Shown here: positions 13,313 through 60,372 of the stretch, piece after piece | Layout: each line of letters starts with the position of its first letter | Position numbering within the stretch: the stretch's first letter is position 1 | Source: an uncultured Planctomycetaceae bacterium | GTDB lineage: Bacteria; Planctomycetota; Planctomycetia; Planctomycetales; Planctomycetaceae | Assembly (NCBI GenBank): GCA_963815195.1 | Contig: CAWFGE010000004.1 | Location: forward strand, 59,451 to 123,450 | Length of the DNA stretch: 64,000 nucleotides | Reading direction: 5' to 3' | The notes under the pieces: generated by a model | Databases searched by the model: none | Told to the model about the DNA's origin: nothing | What the model saw: the letters and a program-made list of their open reading frames with translations, nothing else | Translations under genes and position numbers: made by a program

Positions 13313-13410
13313 ATGCCAAATAATGGGCAGACGAATCCGCTCGATCTGATCACGACCACCGCTTACGATGCCGCCGACCGAAAGACGCTCAAACTCGATC
13401 CCCGCGGCGG
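13313..13410 (+). pseudogene. RHS/YD-repeat fragment
   Basis: Translates as ...DLITTTAYDAADRKTLKLDPRG, a typical YD repeat; cut by REPIN copy 2. Confidence 0.6.
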
Positions 13411-13559
13411 GGTGGCATGCTCATGGCTTTGCATGAGCATGCATTTGGATGAAACTTTGATTCCTTGAAATCAAAAAAATACGGCCAAAAAACAGGGGCC
13501 ATGTCACATTACGTTCGGAAAACATGCTCATGCAAAGCCATGAGCATGCCACCCTGCCG
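13405..13559. repeat. REPIN/MITE-like element, copy 2
   Basis: Differs from 10922-11075 only by one extra A in an A-run and one C/T substitution. Confidence 0.9.
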
Positions 13560-13748
13560 CCCCCCCGCACAAACACCGCGAACGCTACCTCGCCACCAAA
13601 CGCGACAAACTAGGACACCTCCTCCCCGCCGGCAACCAGGACGCGGCCGATTGAGCGAAGAATGGAGAGCCGGTTCCGCCCGCCTTTTGGTTTGAGAACG
13701 CCATCCACCCTAACATCGCTGGCCGGCACAGCCGGCCCTACGCCACTC
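13558..13748. repeat. 191-bp direct repeat, copy 2 (duplicated ribBA 3' end + REP)
   Basis: Identical to 9658-9848. Confidence 0.95.
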
Positions 13749-18075: not shown

Positions 18076-21000
18076 TCAGGCGGCCCCGCCGGCCGATTCG
18101 TCGGTTTTCAAGCTGGGGTGAAAATGCCGAATGCGGGTGACGGCCACCAGGCACGCCGCCTGCTCGCTGGGGCCGTGGGAGGCTTGAAACTCCTCGAGCA
18201 GCGGCAACAGAAATCCCGCGAACTCGCCGTCCTCGACCGCGGCGTCGCGGAGCGTTTCCACGAGCGCCAACTTCGCCTTGCGGTGGGGCAGCGGCTTTAA
18301 GCGGGTTTGGATCGTGCCCGCTTCCTCGCGGCGGGCTTCCGGACGGCCGGGCGGAAGCTCGAACAGCATCCGCCTTAAAAACCGCCTGAGCGCATCCGCC
18401 TCGGCGGGCAGGTTCTCCGGCTTCGGCGGAGCCCCCGTGCCCACGCTGTCTTCGGGAGATTTCGCCTCTTTTTTGCGTTTGCTCTTGAGCTGCGATTCGG
18501 GCAGCGGCGCGGGTTTCCAGTCCGACGTGATGCCCCGCGCGCGGTACAGCGACCAGAAGCTCTGAATCACGAACGCCCGCACCCGGCGGTCGGGGCTTTC
18601 GGTCAGGCGGAACAGTTCCGCCGGCAATTTCAATCGCGGATGCCGTTCGATCAAGTCCATCCCCAACGCCCGCGTGCCCTCGTCCCGCGATTCGCAAAAG
18701 CTGTAAACCGCATCGGCCGTGAGCACCCTTGGATCAATCCGATACCGGCGGTGCTCGGTGGTGTCCTCCGCGGTCATCGCCTTCGCCACGAACTGCCGGA
18801 CTTCCCCGTAAGGCGATTCGCACATCTCGATCAAACCTTCGATCGGCGGCGCCCAGCGGGCAAACTCATAACCGGCGATCTCAAGCGCAAACTCCCTGAG
18901 CGGCAATCGGCGTTCGAAAAACAACGGCTGCATGCGGTCGAAGGTGAGAAACTCCGCGGGAATCTCCGCACCCGGATCGACCGGCCGGTCCGTCTCCGCA
19001 AGACAAATCTCGGGATGATGCCGGCGAAAATACTTCAGGGCAAACTGCCGGAGCGGCGCGTCCGCTTTGCCCTCGCTGGTGAGCATCTCCCACAGGCGTT
19101 CGCAGCCGGCGGTCACGGCATCGGCGGAGAACTCCCGCTCTTCGCCCGCGAGCCTTTGCAAGAATGCCGTCTCCGAAATGATCTTCAGCTCGGCCCCTTC
19201 CTCCATCAGCGACTCGGCTTTGACCTGCTTGCTGCCTTTTCGCCCCTGGCCATAAAGCGGGCTGCCCTCGTCGCCGATGACGAGGTAATTCAAGTTTTTG
19301 TTGACGGCCGAGGCCACCTTGCCGCCGGCTTCGCGGACTTTCTTCTGGGCTTCGCCGCGGCTCATCGTGGCGAGCTTGCCCGTGAACAGAAACGAATCCC
19401 CGCCCAGATCGACCGCGGGTTTCTTGGGCTCGGCTTTTTTCTTTTTGGATTTTGCGGCGGGCTCGGGTTCCGGAGCCGCGTCTTTCGGAGCAAAATCCGC
19501 CGGCAAGAAGGCGCGGATCATCGTCTCCACCGCAAAGTCGTGATACCGCGGCTCGCTCCGCTGGACCAGTTCCATCAGCCATTCAAACCCCAACTGCCCC
19601 GGCGAAAACCGCCGCGGGTCGCTCAGCCAATGCAGAATCTCCGCCGAGAGTTGCTCATCGAAGTTCACGCCCCAATTCTTGACCGACGGGTAGTCCGACT
19701 TTTTCAGTTCTGCAATTTCGGGAGCGGCTTCGAAGGCGGGATGGTACGCCAATATTTTCAACCATTGGACGCCGACGGTTTCCGCTTTCAGCTTCCCTTC
19801 ATCAATCCAGTTGGTGATGGACGCCGCCGCATGATTGTTGAGCATGGACCGCTTTAAGAAATCGGGAGCGAGTTCGTTCGCATCGAATTTTTGCAGTTCG
19901 CCCATCGCGAAGAGAATCAGGTTCCGAACCTGCCAATACGAAATGCGATCCGTGTCCACCCAATCGACAAGGTCCATGAAAAAATCGGGGCCGAGCTTTT
20001 TGGTGGGATGCACGTCCGGCAGGAGTTTTTGCGCGAACGCTTGCGCGGATTCGTTTTCGCCCAACAGCCGTTCGCGGAACCACTCCGGGGTGAGTTCCTT
20101 CGCGCCGAAATGTTTGCGGATCATGTCCTGGGCCAGGTCGCCGCCGTGCTCGGTTTCGAGGAGCCGCCCCCAGGCGTCCAGGCCCACGTCTTTTCGCGGA
20201 TCGCGGGCTTTGACGAGATCGAGCGCCAGCTTGTGGACGTGGGAGTTCGGATTGTCGGCGAGGCGGATCAAATCCTCGATCGGCAAATCGCGGGCGTGGG
20301 TGCGGGCATAGTCGGCGGCATAGGCGCACGCCGAGTCGCTGGAAGAATCGAACAGCCGCAACACCGCGTCGTGCAAGCCCAGTTCGCGAAACGCCGCCTG
20401 CTCGAACTTGGGAACGTTCTTCAGGATCCATACGACGAACTCATCCACGACGCCGCTGCCCGCGCTGACCAATCGCGCGACCCAATCCGGCTCGACTTCC
20501 CGCAGCGTCGCGCGGAAGTCGGTCTTCAAACCCTCCACGGCGAACTCGCGGATGTCGTCGGACTTGGCCCGCTCCAAAAGTGAAAACAACGGCCGGGGCG
20601 TTCGCTGCCAAAGCTCGCCGAACGCCCGCTGCTTGATGAGCGACTTGGGACGCGAGCGGTAGCGAAACCGGCGGGCGGTGTAGCTGCCCGTCTCGTGAAA
20701 CAGGATGTGGTTCAAAACCCAACACCGGGGCCAATACCCGCTGTGGAAATCCTGCGGATAGTGCGCGAGGAAATCGACGCAGTGATCGGCATAGACCGCC
20801 GGCAGCGTTTGACCGGTCCGCCTCAAGAACCGCCACGCCCGCCGGACCAGATAGCCCAACGTCATTTTGCTGACCGCGGGCGATCCCCAGCCCGCAAACG
20901 CCATGTCGAACCGGGCCGCGAGCGCCCCGTAGATTTCCAGATCGCCCCGGGCCTCGGCTTCCTTGAAAATCCGCTTGAGCGCCTTCCAAGGCCCGTAAGT

Positions 21001-21360
21001 CAAAGGCACCTTCGCGATAATCCGCAGCAAACACGAGCGGGCAAAGACGCCGTTGTCTTCCCAGAGCACGCTGAGGATTTCGTGCAGCCGAAGCTTGTCC
21101 GGAAGCGGCACCTCCGCCTCGGGCGACTCAAGGGCCTTGAGCGTTTCCACGCGGTAATGGGCCTGCTCTTCCCGCGGCTTCTTGCGGAACGCGGGCGACG
21201 TGATCTCCCGCACGAATTTCTCGAACGTCAGCGCCCCCTCGCGCACGGGCGCTTCCGCTTCGGGCGGCGGCGCGGACGCGAGCCGCTCGACATAAGCGAC
21301 GAGTTCCGGGTCGCTCGTTTCCCAAGCCCGCCGAATGTCATCCAATGCGAGTTGCGCCAT
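18076..21360 (-). CDS. Large HEAT/ARM-like helical-repeat protein with an internal BRCT domain
   Basis: BRCT signature FLFTGKL..MSR.EA...V...GGKV.S.V.KNL.YLVIG...GSK..KA......IISE..F (~19150-19405); the rest looks like amphipathic helical repeats. Confidence 0.8.
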   Translation of the reverse strand: MAQLALDDIRRAWETSDPELVAYVERLASAPPPEAEAPVREGALTFEKFVREITSPAFRKKPREEQAHYRVETLKALESPEAEVPLPDKLRLHEILSVLWEDNGVFARSCLLRIIAKVPLTYGPWKALKRIFKEAEARGDLEIYGALAARFDMAFAGWGSPAVSKMTLGYLVRRAWRFLRRTGQTLPAVYADHCVDFLAHYPQDFHSGYWPRCWVLNHILFHETGSYTARRFRYRSRPKSLIKQRAFGELWQRTPRPLFSLLERAKSDDIREFAVEGLKTDFRATLREVEPDWVARLVSAGSGVVDEFVVWILKNVPKFEQAAFRELGLHDAVLRLFDSSSDSACAYAADYARTHARDLPIEDLIRLADNPNSHVHKLALDLVKARDPRKDVGLDAWGRLLETEHGGDLAQDMIRKHFGAKELTPEWFRERLLGENESAQAFAQKLLPDVHPTKKLGPDFFMDLVDWVDTDRISYWQVRNLILFAMGELQKFDANELAPDFLKRSMLNNHAAASITNWIDEGKLKAETVGVQWLKILAYHPAFEAAPEIAELKKSDYPSVKNWGVNFDEQLSAEILHWLSDPRRFSPGQLGFEWLMELVQRSEPRYHDFAVETMIRAFLPADFAPKDAAPEPEPAAKSKKKKAEPKKPAVDLGGDSFLFTGKLATMSRGEAQKKVREAGGKVASAVNKNLNYLVIGDEGSPLYGQGRKGSKQVKAESLMEEGAELKIISETAFLQRLAGEEREFSADAVTAGCERLWEMLTSEGKADAPLRQFALKYFRRHHPEICLAETDRPVDPGAEIPAEFLTFDRMQPLFFERRLPLREFALEIAGYEFARWAPPIEGLIEMCESPYGEVRQFVAKAMTAEDTTEHRRYRIDPRVLTADAVYSFCESRDEGTRALGMDLIERHPRLKLPAELFRLTESPDRRVRAFVIQSFWSLYRARGITSDWKPAPLPESQLKSKRKKEAKSPEDSVGTGAPPKPENLPAEADALRRFLRRMLFELPPGRPEARREEAGTIQTRLKPLPHRKAKLALVETLRDAAVEDGEFAGFLLPLLEEFQASHGPSEQAACLVAVTRIRHFHPSLKTDESAGGAA

Positions 21361-21427
21361 GAGAGATGCTCTCTAACAGAAACAGTCTCGATGTCCGACA
21401 TTAGCCCCCTGCGGCTAATGAATGAGA

Positions 21428-21513
21428 GAAAAAGGTAAAAAAGAATGACCGAGCACCAATTCCGATTGTTGCCGAGCGCGGGCACGTTCTGGGTCATTGT
21501 GTGTCGGTCATTC
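21428..21513 (-). terminator. Putative intrinsic terminator/attenuator between the retron ncRNA and the HEAT-BRCT gene
   Basis: GAATGACCGA (21443-21452) / TCGGTCATTC (21504-21513) stem with extended pairing, followed on the minus strand by TTTTTTACCTTTTT. Confidence 0.55.
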
Positions 21514-21515
21514 CT

Positions 21516-21768
21516 GTTCCTGAGAGCCGTCTACTTCTAGACCTGGGACATGGAAGGCTCACTGACCCGCCGTCCCGGTAGTGCAATTACCTGCAGCGGA
21601 ACCACGATGGGCGGGGTTGATCCAGACCGCTGCGAGGTAATTGCACTACCGGGACGATCAGCGGGTCTGAAACAGCCTTCCTTGTGAAGAGTGACAGGCA
21701 AAACGCTAGAACGGCGCAACGCCGCTCGCGGTGCAAGGCACCAAGCTAGACCTGGACTCTCGGAAACA
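21516..21768 (-). ncRNA. Retron-type msr-msd non-coding RNA resembling myxobacterial Mx162/Sa163
   Basis: 5' arm TTCC-GAGAGTC-CAG-GTCTA pairs with 3' arm TAGAC-GGCTCTC-A-GGAA; unpaired branching G in AGC at 21746; msr hairpins GGTGC/GCACC and GAGCGGCGTTGCGCCGTTC; ~130-nt msd stem-loop at 21553-21680. The predicted DNA ends resemble Mx162 msDNA as I recall it. Confidence 0.8.
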
Positions 21769-21773
21769 ACACC

Positions 21774-21802
21774 TGTCTATCAAACTTGAGGGGCAAACGC
21801 AA
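21774..21802 (-). promoter_or_regulatory. Putative sigma70-type promoter for the retron ncRNA
   Basis: TTGCGT (21802-21797), 17-nt spacer ending TGA, TAGACA (21779-21774); predicted start ~21767, about 22 nt before the branching G. Confidence 0.4.
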
Positions 21803-21814
21803 GCATATGGCGAT

Positions 21815-21883
21815 CCGCTTACTTTGTGCGCGGCTCTCCGCAGGTTTCGCGGCCGGTTAAAGAGCCACGCACGCAGTAAGCGG
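21815..21883. repeat. REP-like long inverted repeat downstream of the DUF58 gene
   Basis: CCGCTTACT.TGTGCG.GGCTCT ... AGAGCC.CGCAC.CAGTAAGCGG. Confidence 0.65.
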
Positions 21884-21894
21884 GAATCTCCTCC

Positions 21895-23232
21895 TCACAA
21901 CAGGTTCTGTTGGCGGAGTTCGATGAACTGGTTGATAAGGGGGAGCGTCAGATGTTGGGGGAGCGTGTCGATCACGTGGATGCCGCCGTGCTTGAGGGCG
22001 TAGATCGCCCGGCCGCGGTCCCGCAGCAGCCCGAGCGCCACCGCCTGGTCCGCTCCCTCTTCGATGGACTCAGGCTCGGCATAGACGACCTGCCTTAACA
22101 GCGGCGTTTGCAGGGCCGCGAACAGCACCAGGTGCTGGCGATTGAGCCGGGCGAGGGCCGCACAGTGCGTCCGCGATGTTTCCGCATCGCCCAGGTCGGA
22201 GAGAATCACAAGCAGGCAGCGTTTGGATTGGCGGTGCTTGAGCTCGGCGAAGAGTTGCGTGAAGTCGGTCTCCCGCCATTCGGTTTGCAGGTCGTAAACA
22301 CACTCCACGAGCCGCCCGAGTGATTTGGGGCCGGCGATCGGGGCGAGATACCCGCGGAGCGTGCTGTCGAACACGCCGACGCCGCAGCGGTCCCCGCTGT
22401 GAAGTGCGACCCGCGCCAGATTGAGGGCGGCGTCGATTGCGCAATCCAACTTCGACCCGCGATCGGTGAGCGCCTCCATCAACCGCCCCGAGTCCACGAG
22501 AATCAACACGTCCCGGTGCCGCTCCACTTGATACCGCCGGACGATCGGCGTGCGCTGCCGGGCGGTGGCCCGCCAATCGATCCGCCGGGGGTCGTCGCCT
22601 TGCCGATAGGGAAACAGCGAGACGAACTCCGTCCCCGCGCCGACTTGCCGCGAACGGGAGACTTTGTCCAACAACAGCAAATTCGCCCCCACATCTTTTT
22701 GCAGCTCGTCGCGGGACGCGAACGTTTCCGGGAGTACGCGGATTTCGCCCCGGCAATCGGTTTCCTTCTGGACTTCCGCGAGATCCCAAGGCCCGCGGAC
22801 GCGAACCCACACCGGCCCGAAGCGGTGTTCGCCGCGCACGGGGATTCGGCATTCGGTGGTCATCGATGTGGCCGCATCCTCGGGCGAATCCGCTGCGGCG
22901 AGTTCAAACGGATGAATCGACCATTGGGGCACACAGTCCGCGGGGAAAACGTCCCGCAGTTCTCCGCGGATCGGTTTCGAGCCGGCGTTCATGATCGCGA
23001 GTCTGGACTCGAATGGCAGATTCCGCCCGACCAGGCCGGGCAGCGTTCGCGAGACAGAGCATTCCTGGACCAGAGCTTTCGCGGCCCGGCTGTCTCGCCA
23101 GAACGCGAAACCCAATAAGATGAGCGCCGCCCCCAAGACCCATAAAACCTCCACCCAGAGAAACGCACCGAATCCGAACGCCGTCAGCACGCCTGCGAGT
23201 TCCATCAGGCGGGGGCCGGGCCGCGTTTTCAC
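21895..23232 (-). CDS. DUF58 (VWA-like) protein
   Basis: GTEF.SL..Y..GDDPRRIDWRATAR, ILVDSGRLM, VILSDL; overlaps the MoxR stop. Confidence 0.9.
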   Translation of the reverse strand: MKTRPGPRLMELAGVLTAFGFGAFLWVEVLWVLGAALILLGFAFWRDSRAAKALVQECSVSRTLPGLVGRNLPFESRLAIMNAGSKPIRGELRDVFPADCVPQWSIHPFELAAADSPEDAATSMTTECRIPVRGEHRFGPVWVRVRGPWDLAEVQKETDCRGEIRVLPETFASRDELQKDVGANLLLLDKVSRSRQVGAGTEFVSLFPYRQGDDPRRIDWRATARQRTPIVRRYQVERHRDVLILVDSGRLMEALTDRGSKLDCAIDAALNLARVALHSGDRCGVGVFDSTLRGYLAPIAGPKSLGRLVECVYDLQTEWRETDFTQLFAELKHRQSKRCLLVILSDLGDAETSRTHCAALARLNRQHLVLFAALQTPLLRQVVYAEPESIEEGADQAVALGLLRDRGRAIYALKHGGIHVIDTLPQHLTLPLINQFIELRQQNLL

Positions 23233-24176
23233 CGGGGCACCTCGACGATTTCGAGGATTTGGGCCAGCACCTCGTCGGCCGCGGTGCCTTCGAGTTCGAC
23301 GCTGGGGCTTAGGATCACGCGATGCCGAAGCGCCGGCAGAAACGCTTCCTTGATGTCGTCCGGGTTCACATAATCCCGGCCGCTGAAGCGGGCGAGGCTT
23401 TTCGCCCCCATCAACAGCATCAATCCCGCCCGCGGGCTGCCGCCGACTTCGAGGGCATCATCGTCGCGCGTCGCCTGGATCAACCGCTGGACATACCCGA
23501 GCACTTCGTCCCGCACGAACGTCTCGCGAATCAACTGCCGGCTGGCGATCAGATCGTCCGGCGTCATCACCTTTTGCAACAGCAGTCTCTCCGGCGACGA
23601 CAACCCCGACGTGGCGTGATGGGCCGCCAGCACCCGCACCTCGTCCTGGGGGTTCGGATAAGAGACCAGCACCTTGAACATGAACCGGTCCAACTGGGCG
23701 AGGGGCAGCGGATAGGTGCCTTCCTGCTCGATTGGGTTTTGCGTGGCGAACGTGATGAACGGCTCGGGCAGCCGATGCGTGATGCCGTCGTACGTGACCT
23801 GGAGTTCCTGCATGGCTTCCAGAAGGGCCGACTGCGTGCGGGCGGAGGCGCGGTTGATTTCATCGGCGAGCAGGAAGTTCGTGAACACGGGCCCTTGGCG
23901 GAACTCGAAAGTCCGCGTGTCCTCGCGATAGATCGACGAGCCGGTGACGTCGTTGGGCAACAGATCGGGCGTCATCTGGATGCGGTTGTGCGCGAGGTCG
24001 AGCACCGCCGCGATCGAGCGGACGAGCAGGGTCTTCGCCACGCCGGGCGGCCCTTCCAGGAGCACGTGCCCGCAGCTAAACAGGGCCGCAAGCGAGTAGT
24101 CGATCACCTCGTCCTGGCCGAAGATCACTTTGGAAAGTTCGCCGCGAATGGCTTGGATACGTTCTTCTAAAGACAA
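23229..24176 (-). CDS. MoxR-family AAA+ ATPase
   Basis: GHVLLEGPPGVAKT, RIQMTPDLLP.D, LLADEINRA, ATQNPIEQEGTYPLP.AQLDRF; TTG start after GGAGG. Confidence 0.93.
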   Translation of the reverse strand: MSLEERIQAIRGELSKVIFGQDEVIDYSLAALFSCGHVLLEGPPGVAKTLLVRSIAAVLDLAHNRIQMTPDLLPNDVTGSSIYREDTRTFEFRQGPVFTNFLLADEINRASARTQSALLEAMQELQVTYDGITHRLPEPFITFATQNPIEQEGTYPLPLAQLDRFMFKVLVSYPNPQDEVRVLAAHHATSGLSSPERLLLQKVMTPDDLIASRQLIRETFVRDEVLGYVQRLIQATRDDDALEVGGSPRAGLMLLMGAKSLARFSGRDYVNPDDIKEAFLPALRHRVILSPSVELEGTAADEVLAQILEIVEVPR

Positions 24177-25480
24177 GCTGCCAACCTCCGCATCGCATCG
24201 AGTGTCTGGGCTTCCGTCAATCGGCCGGGCCATTCGGCCAGGCGATCGGCCTCGGCAACCGCCTCGCGAAGTTGCCGGGCGCGGGCCGGGTTCCTGCGTT
24301 CGATCAGATTCGCGACCAGATCGACGTCTTGAGTTTCGGGAGGTAGAGCATACCCGGTGTTGAGTTCCCGCAACACCCCCGCGCGGATTTGCCGGATAAG
24401 AAACGCCCGCGCCTTTGCCCCTTTCGCAAACAGCCGCCCCATCGCAGAGATGTATTCGCCGATGTCCCGGCGGGAATGCGGCTCGTCCGGCAGCGGCGGG
24501 CCGAGCAGCGACGCTTTTCGCCAGGAGTCCAGGCCGATCCACAATAACAGCCCCAGCGCGATCGCCGCGTACCCGGGCAGCGTGAGCAAAAAAAACGGAT
24601 TCCCCCGCACGCCCAGGCCGTGGTAAAACTCGTCGAACACGACCGGCTCGCCCCGCGGCGAAAGCAGGTACGCCGCCGCGACGCTGTTGTCCTGTTGCGG
24701 CAGGAGGCGGTTGCGAAACAGCCCCTCATCGACGACCAGGATCGCGCCTTTCCCGCGCGGGAACTCCGCGGCGACGATGCGTTCTTCGCCGTCTTCGGTG
24801 AAATAGGAAATCTGTCCCGCCGGTTCGGTCTTCTCCCACACCAGCGTTTGCTCGGCATCGCCGGGCAAGGCCAGTTCGCTGACGTCCTTTTGCCAATCGG
24901 CCAATGTTCCCGTGCAGTCCACAACCACCACCCGCGGCGGGACGAGTTCGCGGTTGAGTTCCTTCAGGAAGGATTTGGAAAAGTCGTCTTCTTCGTCATG
25001 CTCCTGCTGGAGTTTTTGAAATTCCGCCTCGTGGTTCGCCCGTTCAAACTTCACGCCCTTGAGTCCCAGCGTTTCCAAGATCGTGGGCAGTTCCGTGGGC
25101 GACTGGGACAATTGGCTCAGCTTCAAATCGAGCGGAGTGGCCGCGCGCACGGCGACAACAAGCCGGCCCCCACCTTCGACCCAGGGCAGAAGATTCTTGA
25201 GGTAGCGCGGCTCCACCCCGGCGATCTGCGGGTCGGGATTCAAAAAGGCGATCGTCCGGTTTTCCGGCGCGGGATGCGGCGGGCGGAGTTGGCGGTCCAC
25301 CTCGACGCCGAGTTCGCCGAGCGTTTCAAAAATCGCCCGATAGCCGGCCTCGCGTGTCCCGTAGGTGTCGCGGCCCATCCCGCCGGAATCCGGCGTCTGG
25401 AACAGGCTCAACCAAACCGCGATCAGGCACAGCACCGCAATCAACACCGCGATCTGGATCAGGCTACGCACGGAGGGCAT
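24167..25480 (-). CDS. DUF4350-domain membrane protein
   Basis: N-terminal TM, DTYG...GY, L..WVE.GG.LVV, VVFDEFYHG, C-terminal TM and EYI..MGRL; usual position in MoxR operons. Confidence 0.75.
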   Translation of the reverse strand: MPSVRSLIQIAVLIAVLCLIAVWLSLFQTPDSGGMGRDTYGTREAGYRAIFETLGELGVEVDRQLRPPHPAPENRTIAFLNPDPQIAGVEPRYLKNLLPWVEGGGRLVVAVRAATPLDLKLSQLSQSPTELPTILETLGLKGVKFERANHEAEFQKLQQEHDEEDDFSKSFLKELNRELVPPRVVVVDCTGTLADWQKDVSELALPGDAEQTLVWEKTEPAGQISYFTEDGEERIVAAEFPRGKGAILVVDEGLFRNRLLPQQDNSVAAAYLLSPRGEPVVFDEFYHGLGVRGNPFFLLTLPGYAAIALGLLLWIGLDSWRKASLLGPPLPDEPHSRRDIGEYISAMGRLFAKGAKARAFLIRQIRAGVLRELNTGYALPPETQDVDLVANLIERRNPARARQLREAVAEADRLAEWPGRLTEAQTLDAMRRLAACL

Positions 25481-26135
25481 GCCGGCTCCTTTCCGCAATG
25501 CCGCGAATGCGGGTGTGCTCGTCCCGGCAGCTGAGAAAGTCCTCTTCCCGGCACACATCGTGCCCGTACCACTTCGCATCGATGACGGCCACGAACCGGG
25601 CGAGCGGCTCAAAAAGCGGCGTCGCGCGATACCGGCGGAGCAATTCACGATTCGTGATGCCTTTGCGAATTGGCCGCTCCTGGGCGCGCTCGATCCGCAA
25701 AATCGCCGCTGCGAACAAATACCGCACCGCCGCGATATAATCCCCCCGCGCGGAGGCCTCCTCCGCCGCCTGCTCGAGGTCGGCGGGCATGGCGGGCAAT
25801 TCGCGCTGTTGCTTCGGCGAACGCCGCAGCGGCACTCCGCGGAATGCCCGGACGAACGTGAGGATAATATGCGAGATCAGCACCACAACCAACACCGTCA
25901 GCGCAATGACAATCACCCACCGCAGACCGTCCGGCAGTCCGTCGAGCAAGTGAAAAAACGCGGCAATTTTTTCCAAAAACCACAAGAAGAGCCGGGTCAA
26001 CAGGCCCAGCGATTCGGAGTGTTGCGGGTTTTCCAATTCGTAATCCGGCCGCGCAAGCACCTCTTTCGCTTTCTCGCGGATCTGCTCCGGCGAAGCGATC
26101 GCCGCCAGGATGATGCAGTTGAAACCGCCGTTCAT
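25464..26135 (-). CDS. DUF4129-domain membrane protein
   Basis: A...A.RGDY..AVRYLF, TNRE and KWYG motifs after a TM segment. Confidence 0.75.
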   Translation of the reverse strand: MNGGFNCIILAAIASPEQIREKAKEVLARPDYELENPQHSESLGLLTRLFLWFLEKIAAFFHLLDGLPDGLRWVIVIALTVLVVVLISHIILTFVRAFRGVPLRRSPKQQRELPAMPADLEQAAEEASARGDYIAAVRYLFAAAILRIERAQERPIRKGITNRELLRRYRATPLFEPLARFVAVIDAKWYGHDVCREEDFLSCRDEHTRIRGIAERSRHALRA

Positions 26136-26181
26136 GCGACCATCCGCCCCCAAACTTGGCTTTTCAGATTCTGCCGGACGA

Positions 26182-27003
26182 TCATTCGCCTTCCACGTCG
26201 TCAAAAAAGACCGGCTCATCGTGCGGCGGGGCGGATTCGCCGACGGCTTGCGCCAAAAGTTCCAGGTCGAAATTCTCCACGCCGGACCGGCAGGAGAAAT
26301 AGAACACCACAAACACCGCGGTGGAAATCAACGTCACCACGGACTGCAGCAAAGCCTGAACAACGATTTGGGCATGAATCTGCGGAATCAGTCCCGCGCC
26401 GCCTTGGATCATGCCTGAGATCACAGCGATCAGGATCCCCAACACCAGAAATTGTCCCCAATAGGGCTTCATCAATAACTTGCTGCGGCTTAACGCGTCC
26501 GATCCACTTTTGTCCTCGATCACGACGACGTACTGATAGAGTCCAAACAAAACGGCGAAAATGATTCCCGGGATAATACACAACAGCGTGCCCCCAAAGA
26601 CCGCCAGCGAGTACAGAATCGTGGTTCCCAACAAGGGGAGGAATTTGGAGAACCCCTTGCGGAGGGATGCGCCCACGGTCACTTGCTTGCCGAGATACCG
26701 CTCCGCCACGGCATAAGTCACCGCGGCATTGGTGATCGGCAAGATCACGTAACCCCCAAACAAGGCAAAGCCGAGAAGGACGGGCATGGTGCTCGTCAAA
26801 TACTCGAGTTGCTCGGCGGGGGTCGAATCGGGCGTGGGCGGGGGAACGGAGGAAACCATCAAAGGCGCGAAGCCGGCCAGCAGTTGAAACGGAATCCAGA
26901 GGCAGGCCAAGATTCCCAACAACAGGCCGAAGTTGTCCCTAATGACGGCGATGCCTTGATCCAGGCATTCCCCCAAACTCAGTTCCCGAATCTCATATTT
27001 CAT
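26182..27003 (-). CDS. Multi-pass membrane protein (GDPD-membrane-domain-like) of the MoxR operon
   Basis: IRELSLGE.LD, L.IIPGI, ALSRS..L.K..W and YFS.R...E.FDL; several TM helices. Confidence 0.7.
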   Translation of the reverse strand: MKYEIRELSLGECLDQGIAVIRDNFGLLLGILACLWIPFQLLAGFAPLMVSSVPPPTPDSTPAEQLEYLTSTMPVLLGFALFGGYVILPITNAAVTYAVAERYLGKQVTVGASLRKGFSKFLPLLGTTILYSLAVFGGTLLCIIPGIIFAVLFGLYQYVVVIEDKSGSDALSRSKLLMKPYWGQFLVLGILIAVISGMIQGGAGLIPQIHAQIVVQALLQSVVTLISTAVFVVFYFSCRSGVENFDLELLAQAVGESAPPHDEPVFFDDVEGE

Positions 27004-27117
27004 GACAGCCCCCTCTTCATGGTGGATCGAACGGTGCGTCCCGGTGAACAAGTCACCTAGGTTACAACCTGACCGCCCGGTTCGCCAGCAAGTTTTTGGG
27101 AAACTGTCGCCGCTTCG

Positions 27118-27969
27118 CTACGAGTCGCGGCCCGGGCGTTTGAGGTGGTGCGGCTTGACGAGTTCGGCGTACATTTCGGGCCGGCGGTCCGCCAGGCGGT
27201 CGATGGCGTGCTCGCCCGGTTTGCGGACCGCGGTCTTCTGGCGGGCGAGGGCGGGATCGATCTCGGCGTACAAGATCTCTTCCCGCGTATGATCCGCCCC
27301 GGCAAGCGTGGAACCATTGGGCGCGCAAATCCGGCTCCCGCCGATGAACTCGAACCCCCGCTCGTGCCCCACGCGGTTGACGGCGATCATATACACCGCA
27401 TTCTCCATCGCGCGGGCATTGATGACATGAGCCGAAACGCACTCGGCCCCCGGCGGCCAGTTCGTGGGGAGCGCGATCACATCCGCCCCCAACAGCGCGA
27501 GCGTCCGCGAAGCTTCCGGGAACGCCGCGTCATAGCAGATATTCATCCCGATCTTCACATCCCCCGCCGAGTGCACCGCAAACGGCCGATCGCCGTAGCT
27601 CACATATTTATCGACGCCCAGAAACGGCAGATGCACTTTGCGGTAGCTGCCAAGGACGCCCGCCGGCCCCGTAAGCACCGCGGCGTTATAAACTGCGTCC
27701 CCGTCGCGCTCCAGCATCCCGAACACCGCGAACGCGCCCGCTTCCTGGCAGAGCTTCGTCATCAACTCCGTCGCCGGCCCGGGAATCGATTCGGCAAACG
27801 GCCTCGCCTCTTCCAGGTCCTGAAAGCAATACCCCGTCACCGCGCATTCGGGAAACACGATCAATTCCGTCCCGGCGTTCGCCGCTTCCCGAAACCGCCC
27901 CGCCATCCGCTCCAAATTCCCCGCCACATCCTGAAGTCGAACATCCATCTGCACGCCGGCGATCTTCAT
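27118..27969 (-). CDS. Carbon-nitrogen hydrolase (nitrilase/amidohydrolase family)
   Basis: Catalytic triad motifs VFPE, YRKVHL, ICYD..FPE; terminal DRRP.MY. Confidence 0.92.
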   Translation of the reverse strand: MKIAGVQMDVRLQDVAGNLERMAGRFREAANAGTELIVFPECAVTGYCFQDLEEARPFAESIPGPATELMTKLCQEAGAFAVFGMLERDGDAVYNAAVLTGPAGVLGSYRKVHLPFLGVDKYVSYGDRPFAVHSAGDVKIGMNICYDAAFPEASRTLALLGADVIALPTNWPPGAECVSAHVINARAMENAVYMIAVNRVGHERGFEFIGGSRICAPNGSTLAGADHTREEILYAEIDPALARQKTAVRKPGEHAIDRLADRRPEMYAELVKPHHLKRPGRDS

Positions 27970-59160: not shown

Positions 59161-60372
59161 CTCCGGACCCGCTGCGAGTTTCACCTGGCGGCTGAGGAAC
59201 CAGGCGAGCCAACCGGCCATCGTGATGACCACGGCCAGTCCGCCATAAGTGGATTGGTCCGTGGGCATCCAGCCCGCAAAGAACGGCCCGAGCGCGCCGA
59301 TGCCGAAGCAGATCATGTTGCTGAACCCGTAAGCCAGGCTGCGGCGCTCGGCGGGCACGTATTGGGCGATCAAACTGTTATAGAGCGGCTGGTTCATAAA
59401 GTGCACCAACGCGAACAAGCACGCAGCCGCCAATCGCCACGGGCCCTCGGCCACCGCCATCCCGACCAGGCACGGTGCATTGACCAGCATCACCAAGCTG
59501 AGTTGCCGCTCCATCCCGCCCGGGCGGGCGAACCGGCCGGCGACGGCTTGTCCGATGACGGCGAACATCAACACGATCGCCGCGAGCAGATTCCGCAGCC
59601 CCTCGGCGGACAGCGTGCCAAATCCCACGAAAGCCGAGTTCAAATACCGAGGTAGGAAGTGCATAAACCCGGCATAGACGAAACCCGAAAGCGCCCCGGT
59701 CGCGACCAGCAGGAAAAACACGCCGGGAATGGCGGACGAGGCGGCGGCGCGGGGATCTTCCTCGACCGGCGGAGTTTCCGGTTCGAGAGGTTCGGCGGCC
59801 GGGCGGGATTCGCGGAGCGACACCGCGAGCAGAACCGCCAGGAGAGTCGCCGGCACGGAGAGCAGCACGTAATATTGCCGCCAATTCAAGGAGCCCACGC
59901 TAAATGCCAACGCCGCGAGCAAGGGAGCCCCGGTAAATCCCAGCGATCCCAAAATGCCATGCCAACCCAAAGCGGCCGGGCGGTTTTCCGCGCGGGTCTC
60001 GCGGGAGATCAGCGCGAGGCCGGCGGGATGATAGATACTGGCGAAACAGCCCATTGCAAACATCGTCAGGAACAAGGCGTTCAAAGTGGGGGCCCAAAAG
60101 GAGACCAGCGAAGTCGCCACGCAGCCGCCCAAAAAAATCAGCAGCAGCGGTTTGGAGCCGAAGCGGTCGGCGAGCCAACCGGCTAAAAGCGCCCCGCCGC
60201 CGAACGGGATTCGCCACACCGTCCCGAGCATGCCCGTCTCGCGGGCGTCCACGCCGAAGTCGGTCCCGATCATTTGCTCCACACTGGGCAACGATACCTC
60301 AAAGGCGTGCACGAGGGCATGGGCAAACGAAACCAGGATCACGATCCGAAACGTGGCACCATTCATCGGCAT
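59131..60372 (-). CDS. MFS transporter
   Basis: Motif A GWLADRFG.K, SIYHP.G and ~12 TM segments; converges on and overlaps the giant gene by 30 bp. Confidence 0.9.
   Translation of the reverse strand: MPMNGATFRIVILVSFAHALVHAFEVSLPSVEQMIGTDFGVDARETGMLGTVWRIPFGGGALLAGWLADRFGSKPLLLIFLGGCVATSLVSFWAPTLNALFLTMFAMGCFASIYHPAGLALISRETRAENRPAALGWHGILGSLGFTGAPLLAALAFSVGSLNWRQYYVLLSVPATLLAVLLAVSLRESRPAAEPLEPETPPVEEDPRAAASSAIPGVFFLLVATGALSGFVYAGFMHFLPRYLNSAFVGFGTLSAEGLRNLLAAIVLMFAVIGQAVAGRFARPGGMERQLSLVMLVNAPCLVGMAVAEGPWRLAAACLFALVHFMNQPLYNSLIAQYVPAERRSLAYGFSNMICFGIGALGPFFAGWMPTDQSTYGGLAVVITMAGWLAWFLSRQVKLAAGPELAVQEQAVP

Follow-up and report, generated by a model that had tools for sequence, protein, structure and literature searches.

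In this study, we revisited a locus within a 64,000-nucleotide stretch of DNA (the window; positions 59,451 to 123,450 of contig CAWFGE010000004.1 from an uncultured Planctomycetaceae bacterium), at which a gene for a large HEAT/ARM-repeat protein lies directly behind a retron non-coding RNA (ncRNA). Throughout, G stands for genome, L for locus and C for contig; G000 is the genome of the window, and its contig C4 carries the window ncRNA and HEAT gene. The HEAT gene, on the reverse strand at 18076..21360, begins with ATG and encodes a protein of 1,094 amino acids. This start is supported by the homologues, since matches open at query residue 2-5 in 15 of 16 homologue loci, the remaining locus being truncated by a contig end. 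The PADLOC model HEAT-ARM_XIII (PDLC02921) matches the open reading frame at 1200 bits over residues 3-1086, and an AlphaFold2 model built on a 129-sequence alignment (predicted local distance difference test, pLDDT, 88; predicted template modelling score 0.72) is an all-helical solenoid with a single alpha/beta insert. An earlier note, made from the sequence alone, had described a 1,094-residue helical-repeat protein, and the reading frame, its start and the solenoid model confirm this description. A Foldseek search with the whole model returned generic solenoids only, with template modelling scores of 0.2 or less, an ESM Atlas search returned BRCT/HEAT clusters only, and no enzyme domain was found in the protein by Pfam, PADLOC or fold searches. 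By its sequence, the window protein is a known and already catalogued accessory protein of type XIII retrons. The feature is thus real and its family known, and the novelty lies in the layout described below.

The insert (residues ~650-740; 19141..19413, reverse strand) follows a linker rich in Lys, Pro, Glu and Ala (residues ~625-650; 19411..19488, reverse strand), which varies in length and is of low confidence or disordered in the model at residues 635-643, the alpha/beta insert itself being modelled at ~655-737. It is a BRCT domain of the RFC1/LigA type: the Pfam BRCT match reaches 22.3 bits (cut-off 21.3), the PDB sequence matches are RFC1 and LigA BRCT domains (E 1.4e-5 to 1.8e-3), and the fold matches the BRCT domain of RFC p140 (2k7f; Z 9.2, root mean square deviation (rmsd) 2.3, 81 residues aligned), which ties with other BRCT domains in Z score and is 40% identical. 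The LigA-type BRCT domain that had been proposed behind a Lys/Pro-rich linker is therefore borne out by sequence and fold matches. The insert combines the BRCT fold with the TG, R and distal K residues of DNA-binding BRCT domains, and T660, G661, R668 and K711 are kept in 128, 129, 129 and 129 of 129 close homologues, respectively. We take these residues, and their role, to be those of T415, R423 and K458 in RFC1. As a published study describes it, the RFC1 BRCT domain holds on to the backbone of duplex DNA, makes no contacts with the bases and has a preference for ends that carry a 5' phosphate (PMC9293009).

The distribution of the BRCT domain is uneven. Of 77 metagenome loci, 74 encode it (two others are truncated before it and one lacks it), and among the full-length representatives left by clustering at 50% identity it is carried by 17 of 57 and missing from 40. 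In eight close BRCT-less proteins the flanks are joined by 8-31 residues, and in a HEAT tree that took in 16 of the 17 BRCT-bearing and 23 of the 40 BRCT-less representatives plus seven genome proteins, these close BRCT-less proteins are scattered at about six positions among the BRCT-bearing ones (supports 0.55-1.0). Judged by these sequence comparisons, the BRCT domain is optional and has been lost repeatedly inside the BRCT-bearing branch, and it can therefore not be the essential link to the retron product, multicopy single-stranded DNA (msDNA). Contact between BRCT and msDNA seems to us possible but somewhat doubtful. Another candidate surface for nucleic acid or a partner, which was recognized by conservation, is a basic/aromatic patch at residues 108-180 (20821..21039, reverse strand) made up of R108, W125, K129, K133, R150, Y170, R173, R174, W176, R177 and R180. 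Its Lys and Arg residues are present in 96-100% of 46 alignment rows, BRCT-less homologues among them, and the patch motif is also found in a HEAT paralogue on contig C12.

The ncRNA gene is located at approximately 21515..21770 on the reverse strand, its outer 3' arm ending near 21515, ~154-155 nt before the HEAT ATG. Its folding energy of -141 kcal/mol (z -9.1) was equalled by none of 200 shuffles, 30 of 59 consensus pairs show compensatory change among 10 homologous copies, and a covariance model built from these 10 copies matches at 21530-21750, the window sequence itself being part of the model. Folding and covariation thus establish that the ncRNA is real and that the HEAT gene is the first gene ~155 nt behind it, as had been claimed. 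Its anatomy comprises paired outer a1/a2 arms, TCTAGC before G21746, two msr stem-loops (GGTGC-CTT-GCACC and GAGCGGCG-TTG-CGCCGTTC; 21709..21742, reverse strand) and a long msd hairpin (21571..21656) with 22 perfect basal pairs, which continues past one mismatch and has a conserved head loop; these are the elements expected of a type XIII msr-msd. The predicted msDNA is ~160 nt long (21534..21693, forward strand), with a 3' register that we presume to be that of Mx162. The branching G is predicted at 21746..21746 (reverse strand), in the TCTAGC that closes the 5' arm, from the TAGC rule as given in the relevant part of Simon et al. (2019; PMC6868368). For the window ncRNA, Rfam gave no match at gathering score. 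A promoter scan found no promoter, and terminators were at chance level.

Among 53 distinct matches fitted to the covariance model, which include opposite-strand ones and lean towards the model, pairing is seen in 96% of cells compared with 35-45% when the partners are slid. All 24 pairs of the msd stem covary. Of 81 copies, 73 have a perfect stem of at least 21 bp and 44 one of at least 28 bp, and in 72 of those 73 the hairpin spans 84-87 nt; predicted msDNA lengths, in the 42 of 60 copies that could be anchored, range from 156 to 163 nt. In contrast to this near-fixed length, the arms are just 29% identical among 49 non-redundant copies. They contain 44 six-base palindromes, compared with 20.1 in mononucleotide shuffles and 26.9 in dinucleotide shuffles (0 of 1,000 each), and 18 eight-base palindromes, compared with 5.0 and 7.8 (0 and 1 of 1,000); an internal inverted repeat of at least 5 bp is present in 21 of 49 arms against 12.3 in shuffles. 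As far as the aligned copies show, the msd stem is a duplex of near-fixed length and variable, palindrome-rich sequence. Sites of the restriction or methylase type may have been selected for, or the enrichment may be a simple result of mutation driven by the hairpins. According to the portion of a preprint that deals with it, Retron-Sen2 is activated by methylation of its msDNA (bioRxiv 10.64898/2026.10.13.758329). At L009:4888-5605 two ncRNA copies were seen with identical msr and msd and with differing but self-consistent outer a1/a2 arms.

The PSCyt2/PSD1 genes of the host and its nearest named relatives mark it as a planctomycete. In the genome of the window, the parts of this retron are found as four genes at four sites on three contigs: the ncRNA with the HEAT gene on C4, a "giant" (a WD40/HEAT protein of 2,130-2,240 residues that is the next gene after HEAT in relatives) on C8, and the SWIM and reverse transcriptase (RT) genes on C23. 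None of the genome's six RVT_1 matches is on the window's contig, and the cognate RT is encoded elsewhere, on C23, as the earlier note had anticipated without placing it. The C23 RT (234.5-235.8 kb) has RT_XIII as its best PADLOC model (484 bits), contains HGAAHG, YADD and VTG, and belongs with the Mx162/Ne144 clade, whose RTs have YADD, region X and VTG motifs and an N-terminal extension. It is 64-75% identical to the operon RTs of relatives and, in a FastTree tree, sister to the operon RT of G142 (support 0.90), and the window HEAT protein is likewise sister to the G142 HEAT protein (0.94). The SWIM gene (C23:245055-247151) matches SWIM_XIII at 641 bits with a Pfam SWIM domain at residues 574-605, and the giant (C8:535.7-542.1 kb) matches PADLOC PDLC02919 in three pieces and frames, forming with the window protein the HEAT/ARM pair. 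All components of a type XIII system are therefore present, though ncRNA and RT gene lie on separate contigs rather than side by side. No covariance-model match was found beside the C23 RT, the C8 giant or the C12 paralogues (filters off on L004). The genome holds a second type XIII set, which is also split, with an RT and its own ncRNA on C13 (L064:6382-8199) and HEAT and SWIM paralogues on C12 (L065:7006-10452); the C13 RT and ncRNA are also found in the same-genus genome G086. The C13 RT_XIII was rejected as the cognate RT, as it has its own upstream ncRNA and belongs to a different clade, and the group II-type RTs on C14 and C10 and an RT_other on C20 were rejected as well.

Compared with G086, whose genes are ~85% identical, 49 of 109 adjacent gene pairs are broken, and a 9-kb block (18077-27123) at the window site is missing from G086. 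Since gene order is so heavily shuffled genome-wide, the scattering of the retron parts needs no special cause. For the giant, SWIM and RT genes no clean empty site was found in same-genus genomes. Insertion sequence (IS) elements separate SWIM from RT on C23; an IS1380-type element occurs in many copies in this comparison, and a 97% duplicate of the last 62 codons of the SWIM gene (its WGR tail) lies 1.3 kb downstream of it (G000:C23:243551-243736). The RT gene has one frameshift near C23:235,450 and the giant has two; HEAT and SWIM are intact. Against G086, frame changes number 28 in 130 genes (188 kb), from which 1.9 are expected in the four retron genes and three were seen (P about 0.3), and glmS (G000:C23:226093-227986) is also split by a frameshift, a sign of assembly indel errors. 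The RT frameshift is spanned by a 715-nt short-read contig, whose alignment of 716 positions contains a single gap and is otherwise identical; this frameshift is probably an assembly error.

Among relatives, the gene order is ncRNA, HEAT, WD40/HEAT giant, SWIM and RT, which in planctomycetes form a single operon. The RT lies ~11-12 kb downstream of HEAT in 13 of the 16 GTDB genomes with a close homologue; as for the others, at L013 the HEAT contig ends early and giant, SWIM and RT are on a separate contig, L012 is truncated with the RT apart from SWIM, and at L023 HEAT and RT each stand alone. In the 77 metagenome loci, some of which are near-identical strains, the giant follows HEAT within 1.5 kb in 55 of 58 loci with enough flank, and of the 33 loci that reach at least 9 kb downstream, 31 have an RT there. 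SWIM end and RT core are 337-515 nt apart in all 34 measured loci, and as ~330 nt of this is the RT's own N-terminus, at most ~185 nt are left; loci with the RT cut by the locus end were left out, and one of these, L139, has a wider gap and a weak 17-bit match. The proposed search for neighbouring genes thus yielded SWIM, with its WGR tail, and RT downstream of HEAT homologues. The statement of the earlier note that the HEAT protein sits in the slot normally held by the RT holds against a textbook retron only: this subtype usually begins with HEAT, which has therefore not replaced the RT.

Of the 59 metagenome loci that extend at least 700 nt upstream of HEAT, 30 have an ncRNA match 165-783 nt ahead of it (the other 18 of the 77 were dropped for a short flank or cut start), and the ncRNA is directly upstream in 7/7 planctomycete GTDB loci as opposed to 0/8 Myxococcota loci. 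On the HEAT tree, linked ncRNAs fall to the planctomycete-side clades and unlinked ones to the clade that includes the named Myxococcota, with L140 as the sole exception, and the idea that ncRNA and HEAT gene stay together must be given up for the Myxococcota side. Across genomes, HEAT, RT orthologue and ncRNA occur in 2/151, 2/151 and 2/150 members of the window genome's family, in the same two genomes each time. In the phylum of Nannocystis exedens, 11/151 genomes have HEAT, and these very 11 (of 150) also have the ncRNA; the RT orthologue was found in 9/151, each of which belongs to the 11. Nine of the 11 carry the ncRNA on another contig than HEAT; in G011 the distance between the two is 5.6 Mb, and in G252 the ncRNA lies upstream by 1.6 kb. 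The HEAT gene of G267 runs into a contig end. The earlier note had staked its reading on homologues being associated with retron ncRNAs or RTs, and such an association was found; together with the PADLOC match, this co-occurrence identifies the window protein as a cognate retron protein.

All six Nannocystis genomes carry a tandem msr-msd pair with differing stems, megabases or contigs away from the RT operon (G011:C1:9284907-9285461, L201 and L206; L200, L207 and L227-L234), at a site that is common to G014. No RT, SWIM, HEAT or giant gene was found within ~1.5 kb of any of the 28 stand-alone ncRNA loci checked. In N. exedens DSM 71 (G011), the two tandem copies predict msDNAs of 160 and 161 nt, and their contig also carries, 5.6 Mb away, a HEAT-giant-SWIM-RT operon. 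They recall Ne160 (Retron-Nex1) of N. exedens, for which the source is said to be the 1997 work of Lampson and Rice. The 2019 review by Simon et al. describes for Ne160 a repeated msr-msd without an RT within a kilobase, which it supposes to have been duplicated by another element or by an RT located at a distance, naming none (PMC6868368). Repeated layout, absence of a nearby RT and length are all alike, so far as identity can rest on species, length and layout, and by this comparison the N. exedens copies are probably Ne160, served by the operon RT. In G009 (L017, L202, L208, L213-L224), 15 model matches, of which 12 score above 100 bits, are spread over seven or more contigs; among them are arrays of five and of three copies, and each copy has its own msd stem.

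The SWIM protein offers a candidate for the recognition of such stems. In a model based on 41 sequences (pLDDT 81), residues ~50-360 match PCNA (Z 15.5, rmsd 2.7, 214 residues aligned); the highest-ranked matches are clamps, and the C-terminal part resembles PARP-type WGR domains (Z 8.3-8.6). The two-domain fold of PCNA, 9-1-1 and beta sliding clamps is thus seemingly common to the SWIM model (Z 13-15.5). In contrast to these clamps, which share 7-14% identity with it, the SWIM protein has helical insertions, is fused to winged helix, SWIM and WGR domains, has no loader nearby and was modelled as a monomer. Although fold alone says nothing about function, a binder of duplex DNA that is blind to sequence would fit a stem that is conserved by length and not by sequence.

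Taken together, we favour, with moderate confidence, the explanation that the window protein serves a type XIII (Mx162-clade) retron, of the subtype with two HEAT genes, as a scaffold subunit without enzymatic activity. In this genome, general gene shuffling would have broken up an ancestral operon, and the C23 RT would act in trans on the window ncRNA to give a branched msDNA of ~160 nt, whose main feature would be a perfect duplex of ~29 bp, free in sequence. Together with the HEAT solenoid, the PCNA-fold SWIM protein would hold this duplex without reading its sequence, the conserved basic N-terminal helices of HEAT providing the core contact and the BRCT domain, where present, adding a further hold on a duplex or on the end of a DNA. 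As in other retrons, the complex would then most likely be a decoy for, or sensor of, proteins by which duplex DNA is cut, methylated or bound. These steps are not equally firm. That the RT acts in trans is very likely, and that HEAT is a non-catalytic scaffold is likely; a purpose in sensing DNA-acting invader proteins rather than in housekeeping is reasonably probable, and that clamp fold and basic patch hold the duplex is a tentative proposal to which we give slightly less than an even chance. It would go further to propose a subtype in which a free-standing, expandable set of ncRNAs is served in trans by one RT and displays fixed-length, palindrome-rich duplexes, differing in sequence from copy to copy, on a PCNA-like clamp and HEAT/BRCT scaffold, as a changeable decoy panel for phage nucleases, methylases and clamp-binding proteins, with Ne160 as its first known member; as a whole we consider this unlikely.

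Several observations weigh against the favoured explanation. The RT and giant genes are frameshifted in the assembly and the read check spans the RT only, where it consists of one contig at depth 4.5 whose gap is not placed within the 716 positions. G015 has HEAT and RT and no ncRNA match in a genome-wide RNA scan, G252 and G276 have HEAT and ncRNA and no RT at E 1e-100, and the HEAT match of G276 is just 32% identical. Kin are not independent, which inflates the co-occurrence counts, and in more than 40 genomes the RNA scans scored 15 candidates per genome under strict filters. Furthermore, a small domain could hide within the 1,094-residue HEAT model, the clamp-fold domain of the SWIM protein is interrupted by its helical insertions, and in the type XIII passages of Mestre et al. 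(2020; PMC7736814) a DEDE nuclease-like motif has been proposed for the SWIM protein.

The earlier note had instead proposed that the HEAT/BRCT protein is the cognate effector or sensor and that binding of msDNA through BRCT accounts for the linkage between ncRNA and gene. The BRCT domain does belong to the DNA-binding RFC1/LigA class with key residues nearly invariant in the 129 close homologues, the duplex-backbone and 5' phosphate preference of its RFC1 counterpart would suit such a role, and the ncRNA is directly upstream in the metagenome and planctomycete loci counted above. However, most full-length representatives lack the domain, which was cleanly lost at about six tree positions in the eight close proteins, BRCT-bearing Myxococcota proteins have their ncRNA megabases away, and two further partner proteins exist. 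In addition, the 5' end of retron msDNA is attached to the branching G and therefore offers no free 5' phosphate unless it is debranched. With three partner proteins in the system and no enzyme domain found in HEAT, the label "effector" is unsupported, and we regard this proposal as improbable.

Quite unlikely, in our opinion, is also a domesticated complex outside defence, in which clamp, WGR and BRCT act on chromosomal nicks or ends and the msDNA is a stored regulatory mimic of their substrate. This would be consistent with every recognizable module being of a DNA-repair type (PCNA fold, PARP-type WGR, RFC1-type BRCT), with the persistence of the parts though unlinked, including a stand-alone ncRNA at a conserved site in the six Nannocystis genomes and G014, with the vertical inheritance noted for type XIII in part of Mestre et al. 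(2020; PMC7736814), and with a G+C content at third codon positions of 0.79-0.82 for HEAT, SWIM and RT, inside the 0.73-0.83 range of neighbouring host genes. Yet the system is patchy, present in 1 of 150 other family genomes and found in neither same-genus genome, and hypervariable msd stems and extra copies suit conflict better than housekeeping. A decaying relic, no longer functional in the window genome, might be suspected from the frameshifts in RT and giant, from the IS1380- and IS21-type elements and duplicated SWIM tail around RT and SWIM, and from the lack of the parts searched in same-genus genomes. We nevertheless hold this to be very improbable: the frameshift count matches the assembly background, in which glmS is split too, across the RT site the assembly has one base more than the short-read contig, both HEAT and SWIM are intact and the ncRNA helices are kept.

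Some further features were noted around these genes. A dispersed host palindromic repeat with 25 further genome matches lies upstream of the ncRNA and outside the retron (21815..21883); it also occurs upstream of the SWIM gene (G000:C23:247021-247125) and may mark rearrangement points. An inverted repeat element at 13406-13563 of the window has many copies in same-genus genomes. The DUF58/MoxR/DUF4350 neighbours, a methyltransferase and AddA were rejected as retron parts, as none is beside the homologues. Elsewhere, an opposite-strand ncRNA immediately downstream of the RT represents a third layout (L130:23020-23162), and a second retron with a 45% identical RT, a distant SWIM protein and a weak ncRNA match is located ~8 kb upstream of a HEAT operon (L147:1158-1348).

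If the scaffold explanation with an RT acting in trans holds, msr-msd and RT need not adjoin, so that surveys made beside the RT would miss such ncRNAs. For the RT-less Ne160, a specific enzyme could be named as a candidate and put to the test in a strain that is in culture, and a layout with the ncRNA far from the RT may explain this long-orphaned myxobacterial retron. DNA-repair-type modules (clamp fold, BRCT, WGR) would be built around a duplex of fixed length, which suggests specific mutants to test, and a sequence-tolerant natural msd stem and natural multi-template arrays would be of direct use in retron engineering.

Type XIII includes the first retron discovered. In the literature searched, no published mechanism was found for it; the BRCT insert, distal or unlinked ncRNA, clamp fold and msd palindromes were found described nowhere, most subscription papers lying outside the search, and on natural trans-acting or tandem retron ncRNAs and planctomycete type XIII layouts the mainly open literature yielded the Ne160 remark only. 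PMC8632793 and PMC10849725 have no type XIII passage, the retron motifs described in PMC5737381 are RT-adjacent only, and a metagenome survey lists, in the part concerned, Planctomycetota among type XIII hosts (PMC13712802). The main text of Mestre et al. (2020; PMC7736814) contains neither "BRCT" nor "Planctomyc", and its type XIII passages leave the clamp fold undescribed.

The RFC1 and NAD-dependent ligase BRCT domains share fold and TG/R motif with the window insert, which, unlike them, sits in a helical solenoid without a ligase or AAA+ module and has been lost repeatedly. As for the system as a whole, the type XIII sections of PMC7736814 describe systems of an RT and a SWIM protein behind either a single HEAT/ARM gene or two of them, with Retron-Mxa1/Mx162, Mxa2/Mx65, Sau1/Sa163 and Nex2/Ne144 as members. 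A clade-10-type RT with an N-terminal extension, a SWIM protein and two HEAT/ARM genes in front are found there as in the window system; the two-gene form corresponds to clusters 259_1 and 1688_1, to which we infer that the window-type proteins belong, and SWIM to cluster 114. According to the same sections, type XIII forms a contiguous (msr-msd)-RT cassette, with the ncRNA sought near the RT start, whereas in the window type the ncRNA lies ~12 kb from the RT or is unlinked to it.

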